This document shows positions 11,893-49,680 of a DNA stretch of 64,000 nucleotides, in pieces (the first letter of the stretch is position 1; each line of letters starts with the position of its first letter). The position numbers and the translations under genes are program-made. The notes under the pieces are model-generated. The model did no database searches. It had not been told where the DNA came from and worked only from the letters and a program-made list of their open reading frames with translations. Source of the stretch: Candidatus Parcubacteria bacterium (GTDB taxonomy: Bacteria > Patescibacteriota > Minisyncoccia > Phycocordibacterales > UBA6065); the NCBI GenBank assembly GCA_039796155.1, contig JBDKKJ010000009.1, forward strand, positions 15,077 to 79,076, in the 5' to 3' direction.

Positions 11893-12852
11893 ATGAACCC
11901 TGAAGAAAAATCCCTTGTAGCGATTCAAAGAGTATTTCCACAAGCCGCGATTGGTTCGGTGCTGAAATTCTCGAAAGGCCTGGCCAGCAGTGTATATAAG
12001 GTTGAGATACGTGATCCGAGTAAGATTTTGGCTGTTAAATTCTTCCCAAAAAAGATTGAATTAAGAGTTGAGAAAAGCTCACGAATCTCAAGTTACGTAA
12101 AAGAAAATGGCCTACCTTCACCTCAAACCTACGAACTGTTAAAGGGAGATAACGAGGGTTCTGTTGTTATGGATTGTTTGCCTGGTGAAGTCGCTTCCGA
12201 AGTATGGGAGACGGCATCTGTTGAAAATCAACAGATAATCTTGGTTAATTCTGGGAAGATGTTGGAGAAGATTCATGACCTTAAAATTCCTCCGTTTTGG
12301 ATTCACCAAAAACATGAAGTTGCCTCCCCAGGAGAATGGGTTGAGTGGACAAGGATGCGAATTCAAAAGTATCTAACGGCTGCGCAAGAGAATTTAGACA
12401 AGGATATTGTAGATTTCCTCAGAGGAAAATTCGCAAGATTGCAGGATCTCTACACGGCGCAGCCAAACTTTCGTTTCGTCCCGCTTCATTGGGACTATCA
12501 CTTTTCAAATATCAATGTTGATAGGCATTTCGAGATAAGTGGTATATTCGATTTTGATAATGCTATGAAAGGCCACGATATGGCCGACCTCGGACAAACA
12601 ATGTATTGGCTCGTGACTCAGCAAAAGATATCAAATATAGAGGTGTTTGAAAAATTCTTTATAGGCTACGGAGAGCTGTCGTCACTCGATCGCGAGTTCG
12701 TATACCTCCACTTCCTCCTTTTTCTTGCCGGTGTAACAAGGTCAACGTGGTCGAAAGAAAATCTGAAGTGGTTAAATGAGCTACATGTGGAGGTATTAAA
12801 GAAATGTGTTCAAGGAGAATATTGTATACATACCCCTGCTATACTTAAATAA
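11893..12852 (+). CDS. Aminoglycoside/choline-kinase-type phosphotransferase (APH family)
   Basis: Brenner-type catalytic loop PLHWDYHFSNINV and the metal-binding FDFDNAMKGHDMADLG. Confidence 0.75.
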   Translation: MNPEEKSLVAIQRVFPQAAIGSVLKFSKGLASSVYKVEIRDPSKILAVKFFPKKIELRVEKSSRISSYVKENGLPSPQTYELLKGDNEGSVVMDCLPGEVASEVWETASVENQQIILVNSGKMLEKIHDLKIPPFWIHQKHEVASPGEWVEWTRMRIQKYLTAAQENLDKDIVDFLRGKFARLQDLYTAQPNFRFVPLHWDYHFSNINVDRHFEISGIFDFDNAMKGHDMADLGQTMYWLVTQQKISNIEVFEKFFIGYGELSSLDREFVYLHFLLFLAGVTRSTWSKENLKWLNELHVEVLKKCVQGEYCIHTPAILK

Positions 12853-13193
12853 TGTCAGAGTTTAATTTTCAAATCCTTCACCAAGACCTTTTTCCTGATA
12901 GATCGACGGAACAATCCTTTACCTTTTCTAATCGTCCCACGGTCAAAGTTATTCTTTTAGATAGCGATAACAAAATATGCTTAACCTCTAAAAAAGGAAG
13001 CGGTTTTTATTTTCTTCCTGGAGGTGGCATAGAAAATACAGAAGATCCGATTCAGGCATTAAAGCGTGAGTGTCTCGAGGAGGCTGGTTGCCATGTTGAA
13101 GTAAAACGTAAAATAGTAACCATAAAATGTTTTAACGTTTACTTCTATCTGAGCGATAGCAAGCATGGCGTTTTTCAGAGCGTTTCGTTCTGA
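12852..13193 (+). pseudogene. NUDIX hydrolase, C-terminally truncated fragment
   Basis: NUDIX box LPGGGIENTEDPIQALKRECLEEAGC. Recognisable sequence ends near nt 13103. The remaining ORF tail is the antisense of the converging nrdB fragment. Confidence 0.6.
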
Positions 13194-13658
13194 TTCGGTG
13201 ACACGGACCTTAAAGTCCTGAATGTCGCTCGTGTAATTAAATTCTGTGTGTATCCAGTACGAGTGGCGGACAGCATCTACGTATTCTATGAGTTCAGGGT
13301 ATTCAAATGGCTTTAAATGAACTCGTTTTTTAAAAATATTGCGCTTGCGCAAGAGTGCGTACTCGTTTCGATATAAAATGTAGGCCTTTGCCACGTCGTG
13401 GAAATTGCTTTCCATGAGAGTTTGTTCGACGACGTCTTGGATATGTTCGACAGAAGGGCATTGTGCACATTCGTCGACCAGCTTTTCTTCAACTTTTTGT
13501 GCTACGAGGAGGGCATCGATAGCTGTTCCGTGCTTGGTGGCGTGCATGGACTTCTCCACAGCTCGAGTAATCTTTTTTAATTGAAAGGGGACAACGGATC
13601 CGTCGCGTTTAGTAATGGTCGTGAAGCGTGTATAGGGGGATTCAGTTGTTTTTTTCAT
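13059..13658 (-). pseudogene. ATP-cone domain fused to the N-terminal part of an RNR small subunit (NrdB-like), truncated
   Basis: ATP-cone (ITKRDGSVVPFQLKKITRAVEKS...VEHIQDVVEQTLMES...AKAYILYR), then an NrdB N-terminus (HSYWIHTEFNYTSDIQDF...TESERNALKNAMLAIAQIEVNVKTF). Similarity stops near nt 13125, so only about 185 aa of an expected 400+ remain. The likely start is ATG 13658. Confidence 0.6.
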
Positions 13659-13710
13659 AGATATTGTTATATTGATAGTCGTCAATGGATTATAATATAG
13701 ATACTCATCT

Positions 13711-17429: not shown

Positions 17430-17783
17430 ATGGCTACAACTAAGGCAAAAAACACTGTAACTTCTGACGCTTTCGCGGTTATCGCGACAGGTGGAAAGCA
17501 GTACAAGGTAAAGGTAGGTGACATCGTAAAGATTGAAAAGCTTTCTGGTGACCACAAAGTAGGTGACAAAGTTGTTTTCGACAACGTTGTTCTCCTCGAT
17601 GCAGCAGGCGAAACAAAGGTAGGTGCTCCTTTCCTCAAAGGAACTACAGTTTCAGCCGAGATCAAAGAAATCGGGCGAGATCCAAAGGTAGTTGTTATCC
17701 ACTACAAGCAGAAGTCTAAGTACTTCAAGAAGTATGGACACCGACAGCCTTTCTTCTCAGTTACAATCAACGCAATCGCGTAA
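17430..17783 (+). CDS. rplU: 50S ribosomal protein L21
   Basis: FAVIATGGKQYKVKVGDIVKIEKL...KVVVIHYKQKSKYFKKYGHRQPFFSVTI. Confidence 0.92.
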   Translation: MATTKAKNTVTSDAFAVIATGGKQYKVKVGDIVKIEKLSGDHKVGDKVVFDNVVLLDAAGETKVGAPFLKGTTVSAEIKEIGRDPKVVVIHYKQKSKYFKKYGHRQPFFSVTINAIA

Positions 17784-17794
17784 TACAAACATTC

Positions 17795-17822
17795 AAAAAA
17801 CCGCCCTCTGGTGGTTTTTTGT
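17795..17822 (+). terminator. Intrinsic terminator after rplU
   Basis: aaaaaaccgcc-ctct-ggtggtttttt. Confidence 0.7.
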
Positions 17823-18084
17823 TTGCGTGTAAGAGCTCCTCCTCTGGGCACTTTGGTACAACTCAGCATGCGCGAGCCTTGGAGGTGCCAAAGCTCATTT
17901 TGAGACTCAAGCGCAGAGGCGAAACATTGGTTGACACAAGTGTAGTAAAACCTTTTGTAAATGTACTCTGTCCAAGAGGTGTAGGGGTCCTCTAAGGACA
18001 GAGCGAAGAGCTTCACGGGAGAGGACGAGCGTTCGTAGTAAGGTACTAAGGAGAGAAAAAAAGGAGAGGTGATACCGCATAAAC

Positions 18085-18117
18085 AAAAAATCACAGAGAA
18101 CGCTCTCTGTGATTTTT
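18085..18117 (-). terminator. Intrinsic terminator (bidirectional shape) after the HTH gene
   Basis: Stem tcacagaga (18091-18099) / tctctgtga (18104-18112), flanked by an A-run and a T-run. Confidence 0.75.
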
Positions 18118-18118
18118 A

Positions 18119-18385
18119 TTACTCTCGCTCGCTTCGTACTATCAACTTTCGTGCGATTATTTTCTTGCGAGTGATCCCGGTTCGAGGTTTTGCTTTAGTG
18201 GGGAGGGAACCGCTCTCGATATCCTGGACCAACTTCTCGAGATCCTCAGTTTTGTAGATTCGATAGTTCGACATAGGGTGTCGAGTTGTCGGAAGCTTGC
18301 CCGACTTATCCCAATTTCGAAGAGTCAGAGGTGTTACCCCTAGGAATACTGCCGCCTCTTTAATTGTCATAAACTTGCCAGACAT
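18119..18385 (-). CDS. Small MerR/excisionase-type helix-turn-helix protein
   Basis: From ATG 18385: MSGKFMTIKEAAVFLGVTPLTLRNWDKSGKLPTTRHPMSNYRIYKTEDL. It has the same HTH type as the N-terminus of the giant ORF. Confidence 0.65.
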   Translation of the reverse strand: MSGKFMTIKEAAVFLGVTPLTLRNWDKSGKLPTTRHPMSNYRIYKTEDLEKLVQDIESGSLPTKAKPRTGITRKKIIARKLIVRSERE

Positions 18386-18453
18386 GGTTTTGATTAGATT
18401 GTATACTATAGTATACCTCGCACTCGGTCCATACAAGTAGGAGGTTACCATAT

Positions 18454-18984
18454 ATGAAGACATTTTCTAAAGAGAACATTATCGCAATCACAATTGTCAC
18501 GTTCGTAGCAGTCATTTTTATACGCCAATTCGTCTTCGAAGGCTTTTTTGTGAGTGGTGATTCCATGGATCCCACGATACAGTCAGGGGACTTTGTACTT
18601 GTAAACAAGATGGCGTACCTCTGGAGTGAGCCACAGCGTGCAGATATCGTGGTAGCCGTTCCACGGGTCTACCCGGGCAAGGTGGTGAAGCGAATTATAG
18701 GCCTTCCAAGGGAATGGTTTTTGATAGAAAATAATCGCGTCGTGATCAAAAACTCTCGAACAGAAAAAAGCGTCAATCTTGACGAAGCCTATCTCGCATT
18801 TCCTGATACACCTGAGGTTGGGAAGGTTAGAACCAACATTGATCCCAACGAATATTTTGCACTCGGTGATAATCGTAAAGTAAGCATCGATTCTCGAGAA
18901 TTAGGCATGGTGGACCTGGGAAGTATTAAGGGAAGAGTGTTTGGAGTCATAAGTTTCAAAAGGGCTACATATATACGTTTCTAG
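18454..18984 (+). CDS. lepB: Signal peptidase I (S26)
   Basis: TM anchor, catalytic SGDSMDPT box, VKRIIGLP, GDNRKVSIDSR. Confidence 0.88.
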   Translation: MKTFSKENIIAITIVTFVAVIFIRQFVFEGFFVSGDSMDPTIQSGDFVLVNKMAYLWSEPQRADIVVAVPRVYPGKVVKRIIGLPREWFLIENNRVVIKNSRTEKSVNLDEAYLAFPDTPEVGKVRTNIDPNEYFALGDNRKVSIDSRELGMVDLGSIKGRVFGVISFKRATYIRF

Positions 18985-19083
18985 GAAATCAGGTTAGTTA
19001 AGGTTTATTAAGGTTTATAAATCTATAAAAATCTTTCACAAAGAGGATTAGGGTTCGGAAAAATTTCAATAAAGTTATGAAAA

Positions 19084-19125
19084 ACACCTCAGGTCAAATC
19101 GACACGTGAGGTGTTTTTCTTTTTC
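19084..19125 (+). terminator. Intrinsic terminator after lepB
   Basis: Stem acacctca (19084-19091) / tgaggtgt (19107-19114), followed by tttttcttttt. Confidence 0.6.
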
Positions 19126-19146
19126 TTGTACATAGTTTTTTGAATC

Positions 19147-19273
19147 TATCCGATACGACTTTTTTGATGTTATCCGATATTGAGTTGTCCCCAGAAAAAG
19201 ACCCTAAAAAATTGAGTCTCGTCCGTATAATGTCCTGGTCAGCTTTCGGGTACCCGATACGATGTATCGGATA
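19147..19273. promoter_or_regulatory. Four copies of a TAYCCGATAY motif plus a TATAAT box upstream of the giant ORF
   Basis: tatccgatac at 19147-19156, tatccgatat at 19171-19180, tacccgatac at 19251-19260, and inverted gtatcggata at 19264-19273. The last two form the palindrome ccgatac-gat-gtatcgg. TATAAT lies at 19226-19231. Confidence 0.35.
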
Positions 19274-19277
19274 CTAA

Positions 19278-40046
<20,769 letters not shown>

Positions 40047-40065
40047 TGATACTCAGCAGGAATAT

Positions 40066-40102
40066 TAAAAAACAGCGCCAACATGAGTGGTGCTGTTTTT
40101 TC
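40066..40102 (+). terminator. Intrinsic terminator after the giant ORF
   Basis: Stem aacagcgcca (40071-40080) / tggtgctgtt (40088-40097), followed by tttttt. Confidence 0.75.
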
Positions 40103-40164
40103 TTGAAAAAATACGTGGACAAAAAAAGAGTGTGGGTGTCGAGCGAAGTATGTCAGTACACCTT

Positions 40165-40200
40165 TCCTACTTTTGATCAAATTTTAATCAAAAGCAGGAA
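40165..40200. repeat. Palindromic element, copy 1 (core TTGATCAAATTTTAATCAA)
   Basis: tcctacttttgat-caaatttta-atcaaaagcagga. It is paralogous in position and core to 42426-42476. Confidence 0.6.
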
Positions 40201-40283
40201 GGATCACAAAGGGTACTAGGTGCCCCTAAGTCGCGTTCACACATATCCCCATTTTTATCTTTCCTTTATCTTTCCCTTTGGCA

Positions 40284-40292
40284 TGCGATAAT
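40284..40292 (+). promoter_or_regulatory. Extended -10 element TGcGATAAT, 8 nt upstream of the LamG-1 ATG
   Basis: The conserved string catgcgataata appears before both LamG genes (also 42537-42545, 8 nt before ATG 42554). There is no Shine-Dalgarno sequence in between. Confidence 0.45.
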
Positions 40293-40300
40293 AGGTATAT

Positions 40301-40381
40301 ATGAATATGAAGCAACGCATCCACGGCACTGTATTTTTCTGTACTTTATTACTTTCTACTCTCATGATGGGCTTTTTTTAA
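40301..40381 (+). CDS. LamG-1 segment 0: signal peptide ORF, cut off at a T7 run
   Basis: MNMKQRIHGTVFFCTLLLSTLMMGFF-stop. Adding one T at 40373-40379 joins it to ...LKADRVQAASTAKT of the 40393 ORF. Confidence 0.65.
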   Translation: MNMKQRIHGTVFFCTLLLSTLMMGFF

Positions 40382-40392
40382 AGGCTGACCGT

Positions 40393-41922
40393 GTGCAGGC
40401 TGCCAGTACAGCAAAAACAGTTACAAACAGCGGCCTTATGGGTTGGTGGTCTTTTGATGAAAACACAGGCACCATCGCTCATGATTTTTCTGGAAATGGA
40501 AATGACGGCACTCTCACCAATAGTCCTACATGGGTAAGAGGGAAACGTGGCGGGGCACTTTCCTTTAATGGATCAAATACGTATGTGGCAGGACCCTCAA
40601 TTTCAATCTCGAACACGATTACCGCTTCTGCCTGGGTATACTCTTCCAACTTTAACCAAAATGGTTTCGTGATTGGGAGAAATCCGGTAAACACGCAGTG
40701 GGAACTCTTTTTTGAGGCAACCGTACTCCGTTGGCGTGGTGGAGCTGCTGAGAATACCGTATTTTGTAATATACCCACAAATAATAAATGGCACCATATT
40801 GTGGGAACACAGACGGGTACGACAGGAACGCTCTATATTGACGGGGTGCAGTGCGGTACAGGAACAGTCACCGCTATTGGAAATGCCGCGGGTACAGTCG
40901 ACATTGGTCGCTTTGCAAGCGCGTATCACTTTAATGGTTTGATTGATGATGTGAGACTCTACAATCGTGTACTAACTGCCAGTGAAGTTGCTGCGCTGTA
41001 TCGTTCGGGTGAAGTGGTGAGGAAAAATGTATCAGCAAATGGTTTGGTGGGGCACTGGAGTTTAGATGAGGGAACTTCAACTATTGCACATGATTTTTCG
41101 GGTAATAGTAGAACAGGCACCCTCGCTAACTTTAGTACTCCTACATGGGTGAATGGAAAATTTGGGAAAGCTCTCACTTTTGATGGTGTTGATGATTCTG
41201 TAAATATAGGGAGTCTCGGTGCTTTTCCTGCACAGGGAACTATTTCTTTTTGGATGAATCCTGCTGTTGTTGAAAACTATCGTAATCCTTTTACCACAAA
41301 TCTAAATGGATTGAACGTAGGTATCCGTTTTGAAGAATATACTACAGTATCACCGTATGGTGGTTTTAGTGCTGTAGTTGGAAACGATGCGGGTACGTAT
41401 GCTGCTGCGTCCTATAGTCCGACGGCCGTTCTTCGACCTAATACGTGGTACAATGTTGTACTTTCGTGGGATACGGGTACAAATATACTCACCGGTTATT
41501 TAAACAATGTGCTCGCATTTAGTATTTCACATTCACTGTGGCCGACAACAATGCCAGCGGTAGCGATCGGTAACGGTTTCAACACAGCACGCTACTGGTC
41601 AGGAAAAATGGATGAAGTCAGAATATATAATAGAATTTTATCCGCCTCAGAAATTTCAACTCTCTACACTCAGGGTGCTATCACTATAAACTCATCTCAA
41701 AACACAAAGCTCACAAACGGTCTCATTGGCCTCTGGAGTTTCAATGGGGCGGATATGAACTGGACCAGCGCGAGTGCGGGTACTGCGTATGATAGGTCAG
41801 GACAACAAAATCATGGAACACTTGTAAATATGTCTCAATCGAGTTCTCCTGTCAGCGGGGTCGCAGGTCAGGGACTTGATTTTGATGGTGTTAATGACTA
41901 TATTTTTCGGCAAGCAATATAG
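40393..41922 (+). CDS. LamG-1 segment 1: concanavalin-A-like lectin/LamG repeat protein (domains 1, 2 and the start of 3)
   Basis: Repeated pattern GL.G.WSFDE.TGT.A.D.SGNGN.GTL......W..GK.G.AL.F.G.....DDVR.YNR.L...E..ALY, typical of Laminin_G_3. Confidence 0.8.
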   Translation: MQAASTAKTVTNSGLMGWWSFDENTGTIAHDFSGNGNDGTLTNSPTWVRGKRGGALSFNGSNTYVAGPSISISNTITASAWVYSSNFNQNGFVIGRNPVNTQWELFFEATVLRWRGGAAENTVFCNIPTNNKWHHIVGTQTGTTGTLYIDGVQCGTGTVTAIGNAAGTVDIGRFASAYHFNGLIDDVRLYNRVLTASEVAALYRSGEVVRKNVSANGLVGHWSLDEGTSTIAHDFSGNSRTGTLANFSTPTWVNGKFGKALTFDGVDDSVNIGSLGAFPAQGTISFWMNPAVVENYRNPFTTNLNGLNVGIRFEEYTTVSPYGGFSAVVGNDAGTYAAASYSPTAVLRPNTWYNVVLSWDTGTNILTGYLNNVLAFSISHSLWPTTMPAVAIGNGFNTARYWSGKMDEVRIYNRILSASEISTLYTQGAITINSSQNTKLTNGLIGLWSFNGADMNWTSASAGTAYDRSGQQNHGTLVNMSQSSSPVSGVAGQGLDFDGVNDYIFRQAI

Positions 41923-41948
41923 CATTTTCAGGCAATGCTGAATTTACG

Positions 41949-42374
41949 ATGTGTTCATGGATAAAGTGGAATGGTGCTTGGAGTAGTGATTATCCATCAT
42001 TTATGGGTAACAATAGTACCGGTGTGACAAATCAAGGTCTTTCTTTTACTGTTCGCGACGGTCGTCCTGCAATAGATTTTTGGGTAAATAGATTCAGGGC
42101 GGATAATGCTCTTTTGATTAATACGTGGTACCACGTTTGTGGAACAAAAACTCCTGGTCTTATTTCCGCAACATCAAAGTTATACGTGAATGGCGGACTG
42201 GTTACAGGTGCGGTTGAAGGTTCAGATACAACACCAAACATTACCGCGTCACCTGCTATACTTGGTCGACTCGATGCAACACGATGGTTTAAAGGGGTGG
42301 TTGATGAATCACGTTATTATAACCGCGCTCTCTCAGCCGCCGAAATAAAACAACTTTACCTCATGGGAAAATAG
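41949..42374 (+). CDS. LamG-1 segment 2: remainder of the third LamG domain
   Basis: The frame is open from 41898 (YFSASNIAFSGNAEFTMCSWIKWNG...VDESRYYNRALSAAEIKQLYLMGK). It joins segment 1 through the T5 run at 41903-41907. Confidence 0.8.
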   Translation: MCSWIKWNGAWSSDYPSFMGNNSTGVTNQGLSFTVRDGRPAIDFWVNRFRADNALLINTWYHVCGTKTPGLISATSKLYVNGGLVTGAVEGSDTTPNITASPAILGRLDATRWFKGVVDESRYYNRALSAAEIKQLYLMGK

Positions 42375-42425
42375 TAGATTGATGTGTACCTAAACTATCC
42401 CGTACAAGGAGGGATACATACCTCT

Positions 42426-42476
42426 GAGACCCCTCTGGTTTTTGATTAAATTTTAATCAAAAACCAGAGGGGTCTC
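42426..42476. repeat. Palindromic element, copy 2 (core TTGATTAAATTTTAATCAA)
   Basis: Near-perfect 51-nt palindrome gagacccctctggtttttgattaaa-t-tttaatcaaaaaccagaggggtctc. Confidence 0.7.
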
Positions 42477-42553
42477 AAGGCATACATACTAGCCTTGCCG
42501 CCATCGCTGCGCTCATTTTAATCTTTCCTTTAGACATGCGATAATAAACATAT

Positions 42554-43807
42554 ATGAAGCGGCAAAGCTATCTCGTGCATATTTTTTCTCTGTTCTCGGC
42601 TCTGTCTATGCCCGTATGTATGTTTGCATTTCTGTTTGTCGTCGCGCCAACCCCGATCCACGCCGCAATCACTCAAAAAGTTGCCACAACTACAGCCGGG
42701 CTCATAGGTTGGTGGACCCTGGATGAGGGTACGAGCACAACAGCAACTGATTTTTCCCAAAGTAGGAATGCGGGCGTCCTCCGAAACGGAGCGCTGTGGG
42801 CTACAGGTAAAAGGGGTAAAGCAATCAGTCTCGATGGTCTCAATGATTACGTTGAGATCCCTTCGTCAGCAGCACTGACCTATACGGGTGGGGATATCAC
42901 TTTCTCTGCATGGATAAACCCTAACAACACCGAGGCGGATGGGGGAACCATAATATCAAAGCCTTGGAACGGTAATGGTGAATATAATTATTATCTCACC
43001 TATGCGGGAAGCGGAGTTTTTAGCATAGCTCTCTATGGTGCAACTGCCTTTAGTTTTGCCACCACTCGAACTTTACCCCGTAATCAGTGGAGTTTTGTAA
43101 CAGTTACTATATCGAGCTCAAAAGTTATAAATATATATTTTAATGGAGTTTTGGCTGGAACAACGTCTCATGCAATTTCAAGCTGGGTACCACCGAGTGG
43201 AAACGGCTCTTTGCCCTTTAGTATTGGAACAGTATATCCCTATGGCGAAGGATGGGGTGGCAACACAAGTCACGCCTTTAATGGAAAAATCGACGATGTC
43301 CGTGTTTACAATCAAGCTCTGACAGCCAATGAAGTTTCAGCATTATACCGACTGGGAGAGACAGTACGAAAAGTGGCCGACAAGAAAGGTCTTGTGGGGT
43401 ATTGGCCTATGGATGAAGCTACTTCGACTACGGTAGGGGATTTTTCTGGCATGGGTTATAACGGTACTCTGAGTGGTTCTCCTGTACCCACATGGGTAAA
43501 TGGAAAAAAGGGTATGGCTCTTAGTTTTGATAATAATCGAAACTACGTAGAAACTAACCAAGTATCAGTTTTTAATATGGGAACGCAAAATTTTACACTT
43601 GCTGCATTTGTAAAAAAAATAATAATACAGCTCGTGTTATTTATGAAAAAAGAGGTAGTGGTTTATTGGGCTATCTTTTTGTTTTGGATTATCCATCGGC
43701 GGGCCAGGCAGCAGTCTTTCTCAATGATCCAATCGGAGGACAAGATGTTTACACTTTTTCTTCTCCAGGATCAATGCCTGTTGGCGCGTGGTTTCATGCG
43801 GCTGTAG
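42554..43807 (+). CDS. LamG-2 segment 1: secreted 3xLamG protein (signal peptide, domain 1, part of domain 2)
   Basis: Signal peptide MKRQSYLVHIFSLFSALSMPVCMFAFLFVVAPTPIHA, then LamG pattern. Real homology ends at the A8 run (43612-43619). The rest of the ORF is out-of-frame read-through. Confidence 0.8.
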   Translation: MKRQSYLVHIFSLFSALSMPVCMFAFLFVVAPTPIHAAITQKVATTTAGLIGWWTLDEGTSTTATDFSQSRNAGVLRNGALWATGKRGKAISLDGLNDYVEIPSSAALTYTGGDITFSAWINPNNTEADGGTIISKPWNGNGEYNYYLTYAGSGVFSIALYGATAFSFATTRTLPRNQWSFVTVTISSSKVINIYFNGVLAGTTSHAISSWVPPSGNGSLPFSIGTVYPYGEGWGGNTSHAFNGKIDDVRVYNQALTANEVSALYRLGETVRKVADKKGLVGYWPMDEATSTTVGDFSGMGYNGTLSGSPVPTWVNGKKGMALSFDNNRNYVETNQVSVFNMGTQNFTLAAFVKKIIIQLVLFMKKEVVVYWAIFLFWIIHRRARQQSFSMIQSEDKMFTLFLLQDQCLLARGFMRL

Positions 43808-44670
43808 GAGTTGACCGGGTAAACAACACCGCTACTTTTTATAATAATGGCATTGCTATGCAGACGGTGAGTATTGCCGGGACAACAGGGAGTATTGATA
43901 GCGACGGGACTTTAAAAATCGGTTATGACCTCGGCGGCTTTTCCTTTAATGGTTCAATGGATGATGCGCGAATATATTCTCGAGCTCTTTCAGGTGATGA
44001 GGTGGCAATCATCGCTAAATCAAATCAGACAAAAATAAATGCGCCTCAGGATACCAAGCTGACGGGCGGTTTGGTGGGGTACTGGACATTTAATGGTAAG
44101 GACATAAATGGTTCTACTGCTTCAGATGTGAGTGGTCAAAATAATCATGGCACATTTGCAAATACTCAAAATAGTATCGGAAAAGTCGGACAAGGAATGG
44201 TTTTTAATGGTGTGAGTAGTCTCATGACATTGTCTTCTTCGATCAGCATTGCTGGTGGCGCGTGGACGATTGCCTCATGGTTTAAATACCCGCTTGGCCC
44301 AAGTGGTAGCTGGAATACTCTCACACGAGGCGTCAGTGCTGATCACCAGGTAATCATTCAATCAGATGGTCAGTTGGGTACGTATGATAACGGAGGATTA
44401 GGATTTGTTTCAAGTGGTTACAATATGTCGACACTTGCACCAAATGCAGGTTGGCACCATCTCACAGCTGTCGGGTCTGGTTCGGTAACATCATTCTATA
44501 TTGATGGGGTGTTTGTCGGATCCTCTGCTTTTAAATCGTCGTCGCAAATATCGTATGTAGGAAACTATCAGGGTGGTGGACAGCAGTTTGGTACTATTGA
44601 TGAAGTTCGAGTATATACCAGGGCACTTTCTGCCGCCGAAGCAAAACAACTCTTTCTCATGGGTAAATAA
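43666..44670 (+). CDS. LamG-2 segment 2: rest of domain 2 and domain 3
   Basis: The frame reads KNNNTARVIYEKRGSGLLGYLFVLDYPSAGQ... from 43612 onward and ends IDEVRVYTRALSAAEAKQLFLMGK, parallel to the LamG-1 end. Confidence 0.8.
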   Translation: MGYLFVLDYPSAGQAAVFLNDPIGGQDVYTFSSPGSMPVGAWFHAAVGVDRVNNTATFYNNGIAMQTVSIAGTTGSIDSDGTLKIGYDLGGFSFNGSMDDARIYSRALSGDEVAIIAKSNQTKINAPQDTKLTGGLVGYWTFNGKDINGSTASDVSGQNNHGTFANTQNSIGKVGQGMVFNGVSSLMTLSSSISIAGGAWTIASWFKYPLGPSGSWNTLTRGVSADHQVIIQSDGQLGTYDNGGLGFVSSGYNMSTLAPNAGWHHLTAVGSGSVTSFYIDGVFVGSSAFKSSSQISYVGNYQGGGQQFGTIDEVRVYTRALSAAEAKQLFLMGK

Positions 44671-44679
44671 TGATATAAT
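44671..44679 (+). promoter_or_regulatory. Extended -10 promoter element TGaTATAAT upstream of gap
   Basis: Exact TGnTATAAT at 44671-44679. An 8-bp inverted repeat aatgtatc...gatacatt (44677-44704) sits between it and ATG 44705. Confidence 0.45.
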
Positions 44680-44704
44680 GTATCCATAAAAATATAGATA
44701 CATT

Positions 44705-45760
44705 ATGGCAACAAAAAAAATCAGAGTGGCTATTAACGGTTTCGGTCGCATCGGACGCGCGTTTTACAAGGCATCAAAAGGCAGAGAAGACGTTGAGGTT
44801 GTGGCAATAAACGACCTTGGAGATATCAAAAACATGGCGTATCTACTCAGATACGACACGGTCTACCGTGGAAGTGGTCTTGAGGTAAAGGTTAAAGAGG
44901 GTGACAAGCCAGTTCTCATTATTGATGGCAAAGAAGTTCTTTTCATCAGCCAGAAAGAACCAACACTTTTGCCATGGAAGGACCTCAATATTGATGTTGT
45001 TGTTGAATGTACCGGTCTCTTTACTACATACGAAAAAGCAAAGGTTCACTTGGTTGCCGGTGCAAAGCGTGTTGTTATTTCTGCTCCAGCTAAAGACGAT
45101 CCAACCGCAGAAAATCCTGGTATGACAGTGCTCATGGGTATTTCAAATGACCGTATTACAAAAGAAAGCGAATCTGCTCCTATTTCTTCAAACGCTTCAT
45201 GTACTACAAATGCAGGTAGTCCGCTCATCGCCATTCTCGACGAGACTATTGGTGTTGAAAAAGCACTTCTTAACACTGTTCACGGATACACAGCGAGCCA
45301 GGGAATTGTTGACGGTCCAAACAAGAAGGATTTCCGTGAAGGACGTGCCGGCGCAATGAACATTGTGCCTTCAACTACCGGTGCGGCCATTGCTGTAACC
45401 AAAGTATTGCCACAACTTCAGGGTAAATTCGACGGTATCTCTATTCGAGTTCCTGTTGTTGCAGGTTCAATCGTAGACATCACTTTCATTTCAAAGCGAC
45501 CAACTACTAAGGAAGAGGTTAATGAAATTCTAAAGAAGGCAGCTGGAACAGCGCGCTGGGAAGGAATATTTACTGTGACCGAAGAGGAGTTAGTTTCATC
45601 TGACATCATCGGAAATCCTCATGCTTCTATCGCTGATCTCAAGTTCACTCGCGTTGTGGGTGGAAATCTCGTAAAGGTTCTCGGCTGGTACGACAATGAA
45701 TGGGGTTATACAAATACTCTTGTTCGACATGTTGTTGAAGTGGGTGCGACAATTAAGTAA
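44705..45760 (+). CDS. gap: Glyceraldehyde-3-phosphate dehydrogenase, type I
   Basis: INGFGRIGR Rossmann motif, active-site SNASCTTN, WYDNEWGY near the C-terminus. Confidence 0.93.
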   Translation: MATKKIRVAINGFGRIGRAFYKASKGREDVEVVAINDLGDIKNMAYLLRYDTVYRGSGLEVKVKEGDKPVLIIDGKEVLFISQKEPTLLPWKDLNIDVVVECTGLFTTYEKAKVHLVAGAKRVVISAPAKDDPTAENPGMTVLMGISNDRITKESESAPISSNASCTTNAGSPLIAILDETIGVEKALLNTVHGYTASQGIVDGPNKKDFREGRAGAMNIVPSTTGAAIAVTKVLPQLQGKFDGISIRVPVVAGSIVDITFISKRPTTKEEVNEILKKAAGTARWEGIFTVTEEELVSSDIIGNPHASIADLKFTRVVGGNLVKVLGWYDNEWGYTNTLVRHVVEVGATIK

Positions 45761-45768
45761 AGATCAAC

Positions 45769-46278
45769 GTGTTCATCCGAGGTCACGAAAAAGGATTCAC
45801 ACTCATAGAACTTCTCGTGGTGATTTCAATCATCTCACTTTTGTCGAGCATTGTTTTGGCTTCTCTCAATAGCGCACGACAAAAGGGCCGCAACGCACAG
45901 AGGTTGAGCGACATGGCTCAAATTAAGAATGCGTTAGAACTTTATTATAACGACTATGGAAACTACCCCGTAGTAACAAACGGTGTAGACACAAGTTGGC
46001 GCAGCGAATGCGCATCGTGGGGAGCATTAGCGAATAACGCTGTGATACCAGGGTTTGTTCCCACCTATATAAAGGTGCTTCCAAAGGATCCGATTATGGT
46101 GCCAGCAAATAGTGACTCGTGCTATATCTATCGCTCTGATGGCGCTGGCTTTGCTTTTCTTATGCATGACAACTCACCGCCGTGGAGTGATGGGGCGATT
46201 CCTGTTAAGTATGCTGACCCCACCAGACCAACACATGCTTGGAAGCTCTGCTACGGAACTACTCAGTGTGCGTGGTAA
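45769..46278 (+). CDS. Prepilin-type N-terminal cleavage/methylation domain protein (type IV pilin / pseudopilin)
   Basis: Leader MFIRGHEKG followed by FTLIELLVVISIISLLSSIVLASL (class III signal). Small Cys-containing globular domain. It starts 8 nt after the gap stop. Confidence 0.8.
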   Translation: MFIRGHEKGFTLIELLVVISIISLLSSIVLASLNSARQKGRNAQRLSDMAQIKNALELYYNDYGNYPVVTNGVDTSWRSECASWGALANNAVIPGFVPTYIKVLPKDPIMVPANSDSCYIYRSDGAGFAFLMHDNSPPWSDGAIPVKYADPTRPTHAWKLCYGTTQCAW

Positions 46279-47505: not shown

Positions 47506-48399
47506 ATGGCACTTTCTACACAAAAAATAAAAGAGATTGAGATCAAGGCAAATTCAATTCGTGAATCGATTATTGAAATGCTTATCGCTGCAGGTTCAGG
47601 ACATACCGCGGGACCACTTGATATGGCAGATATTTTTGCCACACTCTATTTCCACACACTCAATCACAAGCCAAAAGAGCCGAAATGGGATGGCCGTGAC
47701 CGCCTCATACTTTCAAATGGTCATATTTGTCCGGTTCTGTACGCATCGATGGCACATGCAGGATATTTTCCGGTAGAAGAGCTCAAAACACTGCGTAAAT
47801 TTGGTTCACGTTTACAGGGTCATCCTCATCGTGAGTTTTTGCCTATGCTCGAAACTTCGTCAGGTCCATTGGGTTCTGGACTTTCTCAAGCTGTAGGTAT
47901 GGCGCTCGCTGACAGAATCGACAAGGGTAAAACATCATCAAAACGATTCTATTGTCTAACAGGCGACGGGGAACATGATGAAGGAAATCACTGGGAGGCT
48001 GTCATGCTTGCAGGTAAAGAGAAGCTTCACACGGTTGTATGTATTGTTGATCGTAACAATATTCAGATTGATGGAAATACCGAGGACATTATGCCTCTTG
48101 AACCTTTTGTAAATAAATATATTACGTTTGGCTGGCATGTGATTGAGATTGATGGTCACAATATTGCCGAAATTGCTGCAGCATTTGATGCCGCAAAAGG
48201 TATTTTCGAAAAACCTACCTGTATTATGGCCCATACGATACCTGGCAAAGGCGTAAAGGAGTTTGAATATGACTATCGATGGCATGGCAATCCTCCCGGC
48301 CTCGGTCCTGAAGACAAAATTCCTCGTGCGCAGCAAGGTGCGGTGGCTTTGGCTGAGTTACGGACGTTGGGGAAGAAGATAAGAAGTGAACATGAATAG
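47506..48399 (+). CDS. Transketolase, N-terminal (TPP-binding) subunit
   Basis: GSGHTAGPLDMADI, SNGHICPVLYA, GPLGSGLSQAVGMA, LTGDGEHDEGNHWEA. Confidence 0.9.
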   Translation: MALSTQKIKEIEIKANSIRESIIEMLIAAGSGHTAGPLDMADIFATLYFHTLNHKPKEPKWDGRDRLILSNGHICPVLYASMAHAGYFPVEELKTLRKFGSRLQGHPHREFLPMLETSSGPLGSGLSQAVGMALADRIDKGKTSSKRFYCLTGDGEHDEGNHWEAVMLAGKEKLHTVVCIVDRNNIQIDGNTEDIMPLEPFVNKYITFGWHVIEIDGHNIAEIAAAFDAAKGIFEKPTCIMAHTIPGKGVKEFEYDYRWHGNPPGLGPEDKIPRAQQGAVALAELRTLGKKIRSEHE

Positions 48400-48685
48400 T
48401 ATGAAAAGACTACTTATAAATTTATTTTCACTTGGGTTGATTATTACTGGTTTGCTCTTTACATATGGAGCGATTTTTGGTCCAAGTACTAGCATTGGAC
48501 TGAGTAGTTGGGTGACAATTTGGTTTTCATTTATAATTTTTATATTTCCTTCGATAGTTCTTTTTCTTAGGGAAAGTAATGGAAGTGCTGGATTTTGCCT
48601 TAGCTCAAGAACTAGTATCATTCTTTTAATTACAGCTGGTTTTCTTTGTTTGGTATCACTATTAATACTAATGGAAACTGCATGA
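48392..48685 (+). CDS. Small 3-TM membrane protein wedged between the transketolase halves
   Basis: AT-rich ORF. Its start overlaps the tktN stop, and its TGA (48683-48685) overlaps ATG 48682 of tktC in an ATGA arrangement. It has three hydrophobic segments. Confidence 0.45.
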   Translation: MNSMKRLLINLFSLGLIITGLLFTYGAIFGPSTSIGLSSWVTIWFSFIIFIFPSIVLFLRESNGSAGFCLSSRTSIILLITAGFLCLVSLLILMETA

Positions 48686-49680
48686 TTTCTTCTTCACAAA
48701 AACTCAATCCGAAAGTATTCGACAAAGATGTTGAACAAGTGCCAATCCGAAAAGGTTTTGGTATCGGACTTTTGGCAGCGGGGGAGAAAAACACAAACGT
48801 GGTTGGCCTCTGTGCTGACCTGACTGAATCCACTCAGATGCATTTCTTCCGTGATAAATTCCCCAATCGTTATATTCAAATGGGAGTAGCAGAACAAAAT
48901 TTGGCTGCAGTTGCTTCCGGTATGGCTGCTATGGGTAAGATTCCGTTTATTAGCTCATATGCCATGTTTTCGCCGGGACGCAATTGGGAACAGATTCGCA
49001 CAACCATTGCGTACAATGATGTGCCGGTTAAAATTGTCGGTTCACACGCTGGTGTTTCTGTTGGTCCTGATGGTGGTACACATCAGGCAATCGAAGATAT
49101 TGCCATCACCCGTGTGATTCCAAATATGGTTGTTATTTCACCTTGCGATTCTATTGAAGCAGAGAAGGCAACTAAGGCAATTGCTGAGACCAAACAGCCT
49201 ACCTATATTCGTCTTATTCGCGAGAAAACGCCTGTTATAACCACCGTAGATACTCCATTTGAGATTGGGAAGGCTCGCATCTATTTTGAGCCTATAACAG
49301 GCAAACCAGAGGTTGCGATTATTGCCACCGGTGCACTTCTTCATAATGCTCTTTTGGCAGCTCGTGAACTTGAAAAGGAAAAGATTGGCGTGACCGTGGT
49401 GAACCTTTCAACTATAAAACCTCTTGATGAGGCAACTATTCTCGCAGTGGCTAAATCAGCCGGTACACTCGTAACCCTCGAAGAGCATCAGGCTGCGGGA
49501 GGTATGGGATCGGCTGTAGCTGAATTCATTTCAAGTACCTATCCTGTGCCAGTTATCCGTATGGGTATTCATGACAAATTTGGACAGTCGGGGACACCGG
49601 CAGAACTCATTGAGCACTACGGACTCGGTGTGTCACATATTAAAGAAGCTGCTCGTCAGGCGATTGCTAAGAAAAAATAA
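48682..49680 (+). CDS. Transketolase, C-terminal (pyrimidine-binding) subunit
   Basis: RKGFGIGL..., IQMGVAEQNLAAVASGMA, GPDGGTHQAIEDIA, TLEEHQAAGGMGSAVAE. I prefer ATG 48682. Confidence 0.9.
   Translation: MISSSQKLNPKVFDKDVEQVPIRKGFGIGLLAAGEKNTNVVGLCADLTESTQMHFFRDKFPNRYIQMGVAEQNLAAVASGMAAMGKIPFISSYAMFSPGRNWEQIRTTIAYNDVPVKIVGSHAGVSVGPDGGTHQAIEDIAITRVIPNMVVISPCDSIEAEKATKAIAETKQPTYIRLIREKTPVITTVDTPFEIGKARIYFEPITGKPEVAIIATGALLHNALLAARELEKEKIGVTVVNLSTIKPLDEATILAVAKSAGTLVTLEEHQAAGGMGSAVAEFISSTYPVPVIRMGIHDKFGQSGTPAELIEHYGLGVSHIKEAARQAIAKKK

Follow-up and report, generated by a model that had tools for sequence, protein, structure and literature searches.

Is the 28-kb stretch around the gene for a 6,922-residue, membrane-anchored, phage-tail-fibre-like protein in a tiny-genome bacterium of the Patescibacteria/CPR a single attachment apparatus? 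The original prediction regarded it as one, composed of an HTH protein, a signal peptidase, a giant fibre, two LamG lectins and a pilin. All of these genes, as well as gap, were found at the coordinates given for them in the window, i.e., the whole 64-kb stretch of DNA analysed (features lie on the plus strand unless stated otherwise). The analysis, computational throughout, favours with moderate confidence a narrower reading: at the heart of the locus lies a conserved Paceibacteria-type surface-fibre cassette, comprising a fibre similar to the MAT proteins of Bdellovibrio and its partner genes, and the 28-kb stretch does not form one operon.

The giant fibre gene (19278–40046) is a single uninterrupted ORF encoding 6,922 aa when read from its TTG start; reading from the ATG (19341) gives 6,901 aa, the length called in the JGI record. 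A Pfam match and a hydrophobic peak agree with the predicted N-anchored, tail-fibre-like protein with an S74 chaperone. The N-terminus features a predicted cytoplasmic HTH_17-like winged-helix domain (19341–19502), recognised by a conserved W-L-S-x-S-E-A-A.. block and by a model with a helix-turn-helix and a beta-hairpin (residues 1–55, pLDDT 72–91). The match to Pfam HTH_17 is below threshold in this protein (E = 0.097); several homologues have it as a precomputed or named domain. The single transmembrane/signal-anchor segment (aa 334–356, 20277–20345) is the sole strong hydrophobic peak in 6,922 aa. It ends at P-x-P-F-V-x-G/S | F-F-D, a junction conserved among homologues, in which position −1 is a small residue and position −3 is V, I or S; a signal peptidase may cleave there. 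The juxtamembrane ectodomain that follows (about 145 aa, 20346–20780) is the most conserved part of the family, and invariant or near-invariant columns are concentrated there (PGTHxNEVLLLD..GHIETxGQ..VENLNAE..FTLAxVTKNGN..VEVGK..LVKGA); it was modelled poorly (pLDDT < 55). The ectodomain has a high content of T, G, S, A and N and contains 34 G-N-V-G-I-G motifs. The N-terminal HTH-TM-N-domain head is common to 223 clusters (50% identity, E ≤ 1e-30) with lengths of up to 7,920 aa, and eight of the long members possess a strong C-terminal S74 core.

In the giant protein, the Peptidase_S74 intramolecular-chaperone core is located at 38994–39400, with the PF13884 match covering aa 6574–6626 (26.6–29.3 bits, cutoff 22). 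The predicted cleavage serine, S6573 (codon 38994–38996), is invariant and K6578 corresponds to a nearly invariant lysine among 33 homologues. The core was modelled with pLDDT > 90, and its top Foldseek matches in the PDB were the MyRF ICA domain (7dc3, probability 1.0) and the endosialidase chaperone (3gw6). The core is followed by an extension (39401–40043) made up of a coiled coil, a beta domain containing Cys and a tail of PEPTP repeats; homologues keep the ITLYD..PYC motif and have an Ig-like/DUF5011 or Pro-rich tail. Altogether, the predicted cleavage site is followed by 350 aa, about 270 of them past the S74 core, which is atypical and makes cleavage uncertain. The C-terminal profile matched Bdellovibrio MAT proteins, namely Bd2133 (8OND, E = 7.8e-10) and the chain family 8OJN/8ONB/8ONC (E = 2.1e-8; 8ONC is Bd3182), as well as 8OML, 8OL4 and 8ON4. 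The MAT family consists of S74-terminated trimeric adhesive surface fibres with described architecture and function (PMC10769870). Hence, the giant fibre is not a new kind of structure, contrary to the suggestion of an apparatus of a kind not described. The giant protein is probably trimeric, beta-helical and phage-tail-fibre-like, of the Bdellovibrio MAT kind.

The small MerR/excisionase-like HTH gene (18119–18385, minus strand) is oriented divergently from lepB and the giant gene. Its ORF spans 18119–18463, and the conserved start at 18385 gives a protein of 88 aa consisting of the DNA-binding domain only (PF00376, 39.6 bits, cutoff 28.2; TIGR01764, 30.1 bits, cutoff 28.8). A divergent HTH gene was expected at the start of the locus, and it proved to be a conserved partner: it precedes the giant-gene homologue in eight of nine lineages and does so in five or more unrelated contexts (mraZ..rplU, dCMP deaminase, gatB, secA and hrcA-dnaK-ddl), and the HTH proteins of these lineages are orthologous, with 44–85% identity. 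The 68-nt divergent intergenic region between the HTH gene and lepB contains a 16-nt perfect palindrome, GTATACTATAGTATAC (18401–18416), a candidate operator; AT-rich palindromes occupy the matching position in loci L091 and L093. The anticipated repeated motif ahead of the giant gene was also present. The whole 64-kb window has five ATCCGATA sites (1.5 expected), three of which are clustered at 19148–19272, the cluster ending 8 nt 5′ of the TTG start and including the palindrome CCGATAC-N3-GTATCGG (19254–19270). The latter recurs exactly at the matching position in L091 and L093. TCCGATA sites were found at the giant-gene 5′ end (≤400 nt upstream or within ~30 nt past the called start) in seven of eight relatives, with the variant palindrome in L093 instead. 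The small HTH protein probably regulates the fibre gene via these TCCGATA boxes.

The signal peptidase I gene lepB (LepB, S26; 18454–18984) has strong matches to PF10502 (112 bits) and TIGR02227 (127.7 bits, cutoff 47) and the catalytic boxes (SGDSM, KR and GDN..DSR). In four of nine lineages (the window, L091, L093 and L179), the gene sits between the HTH gene and the giant gene; L131 has a degraded remnant, and about half of the relatives lack it. The probable substrate of its product is the conserved V-x-G|FFD junction or, alternatively, another exported partner.

Strong intrinsic terminators follow both lepB (19079–19119; hairpin of −21.8 kcal/mol, z = −5.3, then a U-run) and the giant gene (40067–40101; −17.9 kcal/mol, z = −5.05, then a U-run). 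As lepB, the giant gene and the first LamG gene are separated in this way, the 28-kb stretch is not one operon. The upstream regions of the LamG and pilin genes contain no TCCGATA boxes; distinct upstream motifs together with the terminators speak against the fibre and LamG genes being co-transcribed or jointly regulated. At the far end of the locus, gap (GAPDH by Pfam, 44705–45760) is the first gene of a gap-rpiB-rpe-tktN-tktC block which is kept in Patescibacteria without the giant gene, and it is not judged to be part of the apparatus. The prepilin-type (type IV) pilin gene (45769–46278; N_methyl, 34 bits; TIGR02532, 33.4 bits, cutoff 16.3) is inserted between gap and rpiB. Seven related loci (L098, L117, L134, L137, L155, L168 and L174) have a pilin gene next to gap or rpiB. 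The closest relatives with intact LamG pairs, L094 and L095, have no pilin gene there. The pilin thus travels with gap/rpiB and does not group with the lectins (4 of 36); pilin and sugar-metabolism gene are mere neighbours of the giant fibre gene, conserved or recurrent ones, probably in a separate transcription unit.

The two LamG genes encode three-domain Laminin_G_3 proteins with signal peptides and, contrary to the original prediction, neither is an intact ORF. LamG-A (40301–42374; PF13385, 149 and 66 bits) is split into three frames, with the signal peptide at 40301–40381, the body at 40393–41922 and the third domain at 41949–42374, by 1-nt losses in T7 (40373–40379) and T5 (41893–41897) tracts. 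LamG-B (42554–44670; PF13385, 107 and 110 bits) has an intact signal peptide and occupies two frames (42554–43807 and 43666–44670), the break being a 1-nt loss at A8 (43612–43619), where the orthologue has AAGAAAAAT. The proposed duplicated control cassette was confirmed ahead of each gene as a hairpin with the core TTGATYAAATTTTAATCAA (four matches, 0.2 expected) and a CTTTCCTTTA..CATGCGATAAT block. The LamG-A cassette (40162–40293) consists of an imperfect hairpin (40162–40202) and the block ATCTTTCCTTTA..CATGCGATAAT, the promoter-like block being conserved 5′ of LamG1 in L094. The LamG-B cassette (42425–42546) consists of a perfect 26-bp inverted repeat (42425–42477; −45.3 kcal/mol, z = −11.7, no U-run) and the block CTTTCCTTTA..CATGCGATAAT. 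Close relatives carry intact 693-aa LamG pairs; in L094 and L095, the paired genes lie 2 nt apart with no cassette between them.

Of the 36 non-redundant relative loci whose sequence continues for 8 kb or more downstream, 14 (about 40%) have LamG genes directly 3′ of the giant gene, compared to 1 of 19 control Patescibacteria gap loci (Fisher p = 0.0099). LamG precedes gap in all 13 loci having both, and follows the giant gene with no gap within 8–10 kb in L106, L116, L120, L125 and L145. About 60% of relatives lack LamG, including L097 and L098, though the C-terminal region of their giant genes is 76–77% identical to that of this genome. The LamG genes are thus accessory. The expected synteny was found in part: the HTH gene and, less often, lepB and LamG recur next to the giant gene, and the pilin gene keeps to gap-rpiB. 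As the relatives were collected via the giant gene and are phylogenetically akin, this synteny in part reflects simple descent.

The chances are not far short of even that the LamG genes are decaying pseudogenes and not phase-variable, leaving this organism with a fibre without lectins: the three frameshifts are independent, one of them lies in a mere T5 tract, and relatives dispense with the genes. All three breaks are identical in independent assemblies of the strain (JGI contig and SRR35626834), and SRR35626843, which covers the A8 break alone, has the same tract length, so a mistake in one assembly does not explain them. Tract lengths did not vary among these consensus assemblies, in which minority lengths are invisible; hence the claim that the lectins are switchable describes a possible but unproven property. 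Against decay, no further stops or indels have accumulated, and one base added per site restores clean ORFs of 691 aa (LamG-A) and 705 aa (LamG-B). The dN/dS of rebuilt LamG-A (against the intact 693-aa orthologue) is 0.26 and that of rebuilt LamG-B is 0.15, similar to the 0.15 of the giant-gene C-terminus; these low values indicate a recent or reversible inactivation. Moreover, homopolymers of 7 nt or longer make up two of the three sites, and A8 provides the slippery heptamer A-AAA-AAA, so that expression could be restored by slippage at the level of DNA, RNA or the ribosome.

The remaining alternatives concern the locus as a whole. It is unlikely, though conceivable, that there is no functional unit and that the surface protein, lepB, lectins, gap and pilin merely share the inherited gene order of one Paceibacteria clade. 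The terminators between the genes fit such an explanation, lepB is probably a housekeeping signal peptidase, gap-rpiB-rpe-tkt is conserved far outside the clade without the other genes, and in many relatives gap comes straight after the giant gene, no other gene intervening (L097, L098, L142, L150, L157, L171 and L174). Inheritance does not readily account for the variety of contexts of the HTH-giant pair, for LamG genes downstream of the giant gene in loci without nearby gap or for the matching position of the TCCGATA motif across lineages. Less probable still is a membrane-tethered DNA-binding signal transducer, in which the fibre would sense contact and the HTH would act on the TCCGATA boxes, whether or not proteolysis through the neighbouring peptidase takes part. 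The family-wide conservation of the cytoplasmic HTH, the two HTH proteins and two distinct palindromic motifs at the locus, and the C-terminal module, whose predicted fold is closest to the ICA domain of MyRF, which likewise pairs a DNA-binding domain with an S74/ICA domain, speak for it. However, the analogy is loose: the domain order differs from that of MyRF, and S74 cleavage would be extracellular, about 6,200 residues from the membrane, and so cannot free the HTH. A signal peptidase cuts at the external face of the membrane and would leave the HTH tethered, and DNA binding by this domain would have to be presumed. Finally, S74 domains and motifs of the GNVGIG type typically occur in phage tail fibres and tailspikes, and PemK-like toxins and other small variable genes adjoin the giant gene in relatives. 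Nevertheless, a degraded prophage is most improbable, given the N-terminal HTH and membrane anchor, the stable chromosomal position in many lineages and a 64-kb housekeeping context in which no phage structural, replication or integration genes were found.

According to the preferred reading, a conserved fibre cassette, the giant protein would insert with its N-terminus inside the cell, the HTH and a Pro-rich linker preceding the single signal-anchor helix. The 145-aa juxtamembrane domain would sit at the cell surface, and ~6,000 residues with the 34 'capping-loop' motifs would form the shaft. The S74 module would nucleate trimer folding and then cleave at S6573 via the S6573/K6578 dyad. The secreted LamG proteins may serve as exchangeable accessory glycan-binding factors, both genes in this strain probably having been switched off, or recently inactivated, through homopolymer slippage. 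The unusual features of this fibre are its size, the cytoplasmic HTH before the anchor, the 350 residues that follow the predicted cleavage serine, and the conservation of its partner genes. The giant fibre is a strong candidate for the device by which this bacterium would contact its host.

Every gene family that the original prediction had combined into a 28-kb cell-surface module at 18119–46278 was found in the window. The small HTH gene (18119–18385, minus strand) encodes an 88 aa protein with a MerR/excisionase-type DNA-binding domain. The genes on the plus strand are a canonical signal peptidase I gene (lepB, 18454–18984) with the catalytic boxes present, the giant gene (19278–40046, one ORF of 6,922 aa), two LamG genes and a prepilin-type pilin gene (45769–46278) with Pfam and NCBIfam matches. 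As predicted, the pilin gene is separated from the lectin genes by the GAPDH gene gap alone. The surroundings represent housekeeping DNA of a small-genome Patescibacteria (CPR) organism, with mreB/C, PBP2, greA, lysS, mraZ/W, ftsI, murE, yqeY, rmuC and rplU on the 5′ side of the locus and gap, rpiB, rpe, a split transketolase, a histidine kinase gene, recR, dnaB, cysS and corA on the 3′ side. A prophage origin of the locus was ruled out by this genomic context. A 143-kb JGI contig and several Logan assemblies contain the same DNA with an identity of 99.86–100%.

Several features of the surrounding DNA were recorded. An Rfam scan of the window, repeated for 17780–18130 at a relaxed threshold, returned tRNA-Glu as the sole match. 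About 290 nt at 17826–18120, flanked by the rplU terminator on one side and the bidirectional HTH gene terminator on the other, are non-coding; this interval has no Rfam match even at E ≤ 1, folds only moderately (z = −2.65) and could represent a small RNA of no known class or the remains of a gene. Its equivalent in locus L091 comprises only about 139 nt. The rpmA (L27) gene is absent 3′ of rplU in the window. Transketolase is encoded by N- and C-terminal genes (47506–48399 and 48646–49680) with a 246-nt spacer, in which some gene calls place a 90–97 aa ORF, and the split is kept across Patescibacteria relatives. The ORF at 13059–13685 (minus strand), with precomputed matches to the ATP-cone and the ribonucleotide reductase small subunit, is antisense to a NUDIX gene, overlapping its end (12852–13193), and its calls vary by assembly (199 aa vs. 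162 aa). The GC-content is 0.47–0.52 in the 3′ third of the giant gene (32000–40000) vs. about 0.43 elsewhere in the window, and the GC skew is strongly negative at 20–26 kb, corresponding to the T/N-rich repeat region.

Alignment and a predicted model place a conserved winged-helix HTH at about residues 22–75 of the giant protein, followed by a Pro-rich, poorly conserved linker. The sole hydrophobic peak (aa 334–356) ends in a conserved junction of P-x-P-F-V-x-G/S with F-F-D, which resembles a signal peptidase site. The juxtamembrane domain of about 145 aa is the most conserved part of the family; a word-indexed search with this domain gave just 8 close fragments, none of them a named relative. 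In the AlphaFold model of the N-terminal 520 aa, only the HTH was confident and the juxtamembrane domain had low confidence, and this model was left out of the fold search. A BLASTP comparison of the HTH with the small HTH protein gave spurious short matches alone, with no detectable paralogy. The shaft comprises about 6,000 residues, is rich in T, G, S, A and N and has large internal repeats as well as 34 G-N-V-G-I-G motifs. At the nucleotide level, repeats are found at 22239–22720 and 24030–24511 (95% identity) and at 29328–29627 and 36378–36677 (84% identity).

An exhaustive profile search (E ≤ 1e-30) revealed 223 clusters at 50% identity that possess the head of the giant protein, i.e., its HTH-TM-N-domain part, the longest reaching 7,920 aa. 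Eight long members possess a strong S74 core at the C-terminus, and many others are truncated or have no detectable S74 core. The closest named relatives of the head belong to Candidatus Paceibacterota, Yanofskybacteria, Zambryskibacteria and Wolfebacteria. Both of the family members with a source name are annotated as hypothetical proteins, as is most of the family in public databases, apart from a few YadA-, tail-fibre- or HTH-domain proteins. Literature searches on such loci in CPR (giant, S74 or LamG fibres) yielded nothing specific and no account of the family. Almost all database homologues of the giant protein are ‘partial’, and the Logan contigs of this strain all stop at 21923, just 5′ of the first internal repeat. 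The genes of the family are almost always truncated in public assemblies because contigs break in the internal repeats, which also accounts for the under-annotation of the family.

The C-terminal part of the giant protein matches Peptidase_S74 (PF13884) with 26.6 and 29.3 bits (cutoff 22). Among 33 homologues, the Ser of the predicted cleavage dyad S6573-T-R-D-A-K6578 is invariant and the Lys nearly invariant; the residue following S6573 is T rather than D. The model of the S74 segment has a pLDDT above 90. Its best Foldseek match is 7dc3, the MyRF ICA domain (probability 1.0, E = 3e-3, TM to target 0.53), and the next one, the endosialidase chaperone 3gw6, is weak. By analogy, the S74 module is expected to drive trimer folding and then to cleave itself. 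The S74 core is followed by about 270 residues comprising a coiled coil, a conserved beta domain with Cys and a PEPTP tail, of which the tail is replaced in relatives by Ig-like/DUF5011 domains; a functional domain past the self-cleavage site is unexpected for S74 proteins. The conserved region, encoded at 39401–40043, combines the coiled coil with a GITLYDExTGxPYC...G.C pattern (homologues P0060, P0061 and P0087) and in relatives runs on into Ig-like/DUF5011 or HYR domains. One homologue of the C-terminal region (P0091, 508 aa, on a 162-kb contig) has an intein splicing domain (PF14890, 52 bits) directly ahead of the S74 module.

The gene order upstream of the giant gene was compared in nine lineages possessing its head. 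An orthologue of the small HTH gene (44–85% identity) lies divergently on the 5′ side in 8/9 lineages, whose genomic contexts are otherwise unrelated. The lepB gene is located between the HTH and giant genes in four of the nine, and a fifth has a frameshifted remnant. TCCGATA boxes are clustered at the 5′ end of the giant gene in most lineages. In the window, the expected repeated promoter motif was identified as three ATCCGATA boxes at 19148–19272, just 5′ of the giant gene start, two of which make CCGATAC-N3-GTATCGG. The small HTH protein matches PF00376 (39.6 bits vs. 28.2) and PF13411 (35.6 bits vs. 21.6). The MerR C-terminal dimerisation helix and effector-binding domain are absent from it, and the protein and its orthologues comprise only 71–88 aa and instead match the type of the excisionase/BldC-like small DNA binders (TIGR01764, 30.1 bits vs. 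28.8). LepB matches TIGR02227 (127.7 bits vs. 47) and PF10502 (112 bits) and possesses the SGDSM, KR and GDN..DSR boxes.

The two LamG genes, LamG-A (40301..42374) and LamG-B (42554..44670), both on the plus strand, are of the predicted family and in the predicted place, but they are not intact ORFs, both being frame-broken at homopolymer tracts. LamG-A is broken at a T7 tract after the signal peptide and then at a T5 tract, and LamG-B at an A8 tract. These tracts sit exactly at the three frame breaks, the simple-repeat arrangement associated with phase variation. When one base is added per tract, clean ORFs result (691 and 705 aa), each encoding a signal peptide and three Laminin_G_3 domains (PF13385, 66–149 bits vs. 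cutoff 27.6). Independent assemblies covering the breaks carry identical breaks, which are thus real features of the consensus genome. No tract-length polymorphism was seen in these consensus assemblies, as the JGI contig and the Logan contigs L008 and L010 were 100% identical over the tracts covered (for L010, only the LamG-B A8 tract). An apparent difference between loci L094 and L095 proved to be a gene-calling difference only. The LamG genes are off in this strain. Their inactivation is recent or reversible, since the dN/dS of the reconstructed genes is low (0.15–0.26) and other lesions are absent.

The duplicated control cassette predicted for the lectin genes is indeed present. Each copy combines a hairpin, whose AT-rich palindromic core is common to both, with the block CTTTCCTTTA..CATGCGATAAT. 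The hairpin of the LamG-B copy has a perfect 26-bp stem with a folding energy of −45.3 kcal/mol. This perfect inverted repeat is located at 42425–42477 and its diverged copy at 40162–40202, and their common core TTGATYAAATTTTAATCAA is absent elsewhere in the window and in the other loci compared, except for copies from the same strain. The palindrome may act as an operator or as a terminator lacking a U-run, or it may be a small mobile palindrome that was duplicated along with the promoter block.

The LamG cassette is separate and has no TCCGATA boxes, and strong intrinsic terminators are located 3′ of lepB (z = −5.3) and of the giant gene (z = −5.05). Hence, the 28 kb comprise several transcription units and not one operon. 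The terminators were called by direct folding in place of a consensus promoter/terminator scan, which found no more sites than in shuffled sequence and missed real hairpins. The gap gene starts 35 nt 3′ of LamG-B.

A metagenome scan seeded with the C-terminal module yielded 80 loci, or 71 clusters at 95% nucleotide identity, and the counts refer to the 36 of these whose downstream sequence reached 8 kb or more. LamG genes were found in 14 of them, gap in 15, pilin in 4 and PemK in 2. LamG is 5′ of gap in 13/13, and in five loci it lies 3′ of the giant gene with no gap. The control set comprised 19 Patescibacteria gap loci of GTDB representative genomes without the giant gene. LamG occurred in 1/19 of these, vs. 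14/36 (Fisher p = 0.0099), and neither a pilin gene nor a giant gene near gap was found in the 19. The gap-centred comparison taken by itself would suggest no conservation of the locus; giant-gene-seeded searches ruled this out by showing that the gene is simply missing from those 19 genomes. In two close relatives, whose C-terminus is 79% identical, the gene order is giant gene, PemK-like toxin gene, a pair of intact LamG genes (693 aa each), coiled-coil gene, gap and rpiB, and the pilin is absent from both. The original prediction is thus borne out in part: the fibre-centred core and its association with lectins are real, and inclusion of the pilin and the single-unit claim found no support.

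The pilin of the window has the motif KG/FTLIELL and matches PF07963 (34.3 bits vs. 21.2) and TIGR02532 (33.4 vs. 16.3). Where present, pilin genes adjoin gap or rpiB. They are found repeatedly inside the gap-rpiB-rpe-tkt block, after gap, rpiB or both (the window and loci L098, L117, L134, L137, L155, L168 and L174). This resembles the embedding of appendage genes in central-metabolism operons in the case of Pam pili, where surface-appendage genes lie beside ATP synthase genes (bioRxiv 10.64898/2026.03.03.709456). For Saccharimonadia and Microgenomatia, the same preprint mentions, without detail, that a ‘tail fibre-like protein’ is co-localised. In relatives, the position directly 3′ of the giant gene is often taken by a toxin gene of the PemK/MazF type (PF02452, 31 bits), for which no antitoxin partner is apparent (L094, 5150–5596; L095, 9207–9653; also L117, L118, L126, L149, L165 and L166); the window lacks this gene. 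The slot can also hold further small variable genes, among them those for membrane proteins of 200–240 aa and for a four-helix-bundle protein, as well as a GIY-YIG-like ORF.

The original prediction regarded the apparatus as being of a kind not described as a unit, but the fibre itself is of a known kind. A profile made from the C-terminal region of the giant protein (A2), compared with all PDB sequences, matched Bdellovibrio MAT proteins over stretches of 32–81 residues, with E-values from 7.8e-10 to 1.6e-3 (8OND, Bd2133, 7.8e-10; 8OJN, 8ONB and 8ONC, the last being Bd3182, 2.1e-8; also 8OML, 8OL4 and 8ON4). MAT (mosaic adhesive trimer) fibres of Bdellovibrio bacteriovorus are surface-exposed, trimeric, phage-like fibres of prey recognition (Caulton et al. 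2024, PMC10769870). Their architecture begins with a signal peptide and a conserved ~130-aa N-terminal domain, includes a capping-loop motif and ends in an S74 terminus or other adhesive tip (PMC10769870). MAT and, by prediction, the giant protein are tail-fibre-like adhesins encoded by the cell and not by a phage, with the same order of export signal, conserved N-terminal domain (~130–145 aa), shaft and C-terminal S74. Both have a repetitive shaft, predicted to be beta-helical in the giant protein, with V-G-x-G..P..L capping-loop motifs (27–34 copies in the giant protein) and an S74 chaperone with a Ser..Lys dyad, and both families include members without a detectable S74 core. The N-terminal domains (about 130 aa vs. 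about 145 aa) are likened by place and length.

The differences from MAT are also considerable. The giant protein is 6–7 times longer (6,922 vs. about 1,000 aa), its motif is one residue longer, and about 270 extra residues follow the S74 core. Unlike MAT with its cleavable N-terminal signal peptide, it has about 333 cytoplasmic residues, including an HTH and a ~250-aa linker, ahead of the hydrophobic segment that would serve as export signal. The giant gene also has conserved MerR-like, lepB and LamG gene partners, and its host is a Gram-positive-type CPR cell rather than a deltaproteobacterial predator. The giant fibre is a striking new variant within a known fibre kind.

Phage endosialidase and tail-fibre chaperones (K1F endoNF, 3GW6; T5 pb1; PF13884) likewise carry the Ser/Lys dyad module at the fibre C-terminus. 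In contrast to them, the giant protein is not a virion protein, its dyad motif is STRDAK instead of SDxxxK, and its predicted released fragment of 350 aa contains additional conserved domains. The ICA domain of MyRF (7DC3) is the closest structure to the modelled C-terminal module, and each of the two proteins has a DNA-binding domain and a membrane span in addition to its S74/ICA domain. The order, however, is DBD-ICA-TM in MyRF and HTH-TM-fibre-ICA in the giant protein, so S74 cleavage cannot free the DNA-binding domain of the latter.

In the tapA-sipW-tasA operon of Bacillus subtilis, a dedicated signal peptidase gene lies beside a fibre gene, SipW being a second, dedicated signal peptidase paralogue. 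The giant locus is similar in that a type I signal peptidase gene adjoins the gene for a predicted extracellular fibre, but about half of the relatives have no lepB at the locus. The best NCBIfam match of the LamG proteins is NF052521 (TafC), at 126.7 bits well under the family cutoff of 410. TafC is a LamG-type domain protein and a minor component of a surface filament, the haloarchaeal Tat-fimbriae (PMC11821415). The likeness is limited to the shared LamG fold, and TafC is secreted by Tat, whereas the LamG proteins studied here are predicted to be secreted by Sec.

The best-supported reading of the locus is a conserved fibre cassette in which a giant MAT-like S74 fibre is accompanied by a MerR-like regulator, TCCGATA boxes and, often, lepB. 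Directly 3′ of the giant gene is a variable slot, frequently occupied by one or two genes for secreted LamG proteins of three domains each. The gap and pilin genes are neighbours through gene order, or perhaps through a shared strongly expressed operon, and are not demonstrable parts of the apparatus. By analogy with MAT and phage fibres, we infer trimerisation, self-cleavage, surface exposure, lectin activity and host contact.

A far-reaching extension of the fibre cassette reading, to which we give little credence at present, would be a lineage-wide contact apparatus of Paceibacteria. A fibre of several thousand residues, continuous with a cytoplasmic DNA-binding domain, would form one circuit with its dedicated small MerR-like partner, the TCCGATA operators and, in many lineages, the signal peptidase. 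Contact of the tip with the host would then be coupled to gene control at the fibre’s own locus, and the slippage-switchable LamG lectins would serve as exchangeable specificity modules. If true, a single protein would act as an outside-to-DNA signalling fibre, for which there is no described precedent in bacteria.

To our knowledge, little has been established about the means by which Patescibacteria outside the Saccharibacteria locate and hold on to a host. Studies of host contact in Patescibacteria have so far centred on type IV pili and the recently described Pam pili. The present analysis adds a widespread family of predicted giant surface fibres resembling the prey-recognition fibres of Bdellovibrio and defines its conserved partners, namely the small MerR-like regulator, the TCCGATA boxes, lepB and the LamG genes. 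It also provides handles in the form of a predicted self-cleavage site, a candidate operator and candidate glycan binders, and the three slippage sites could report on/off switching in natural populations.
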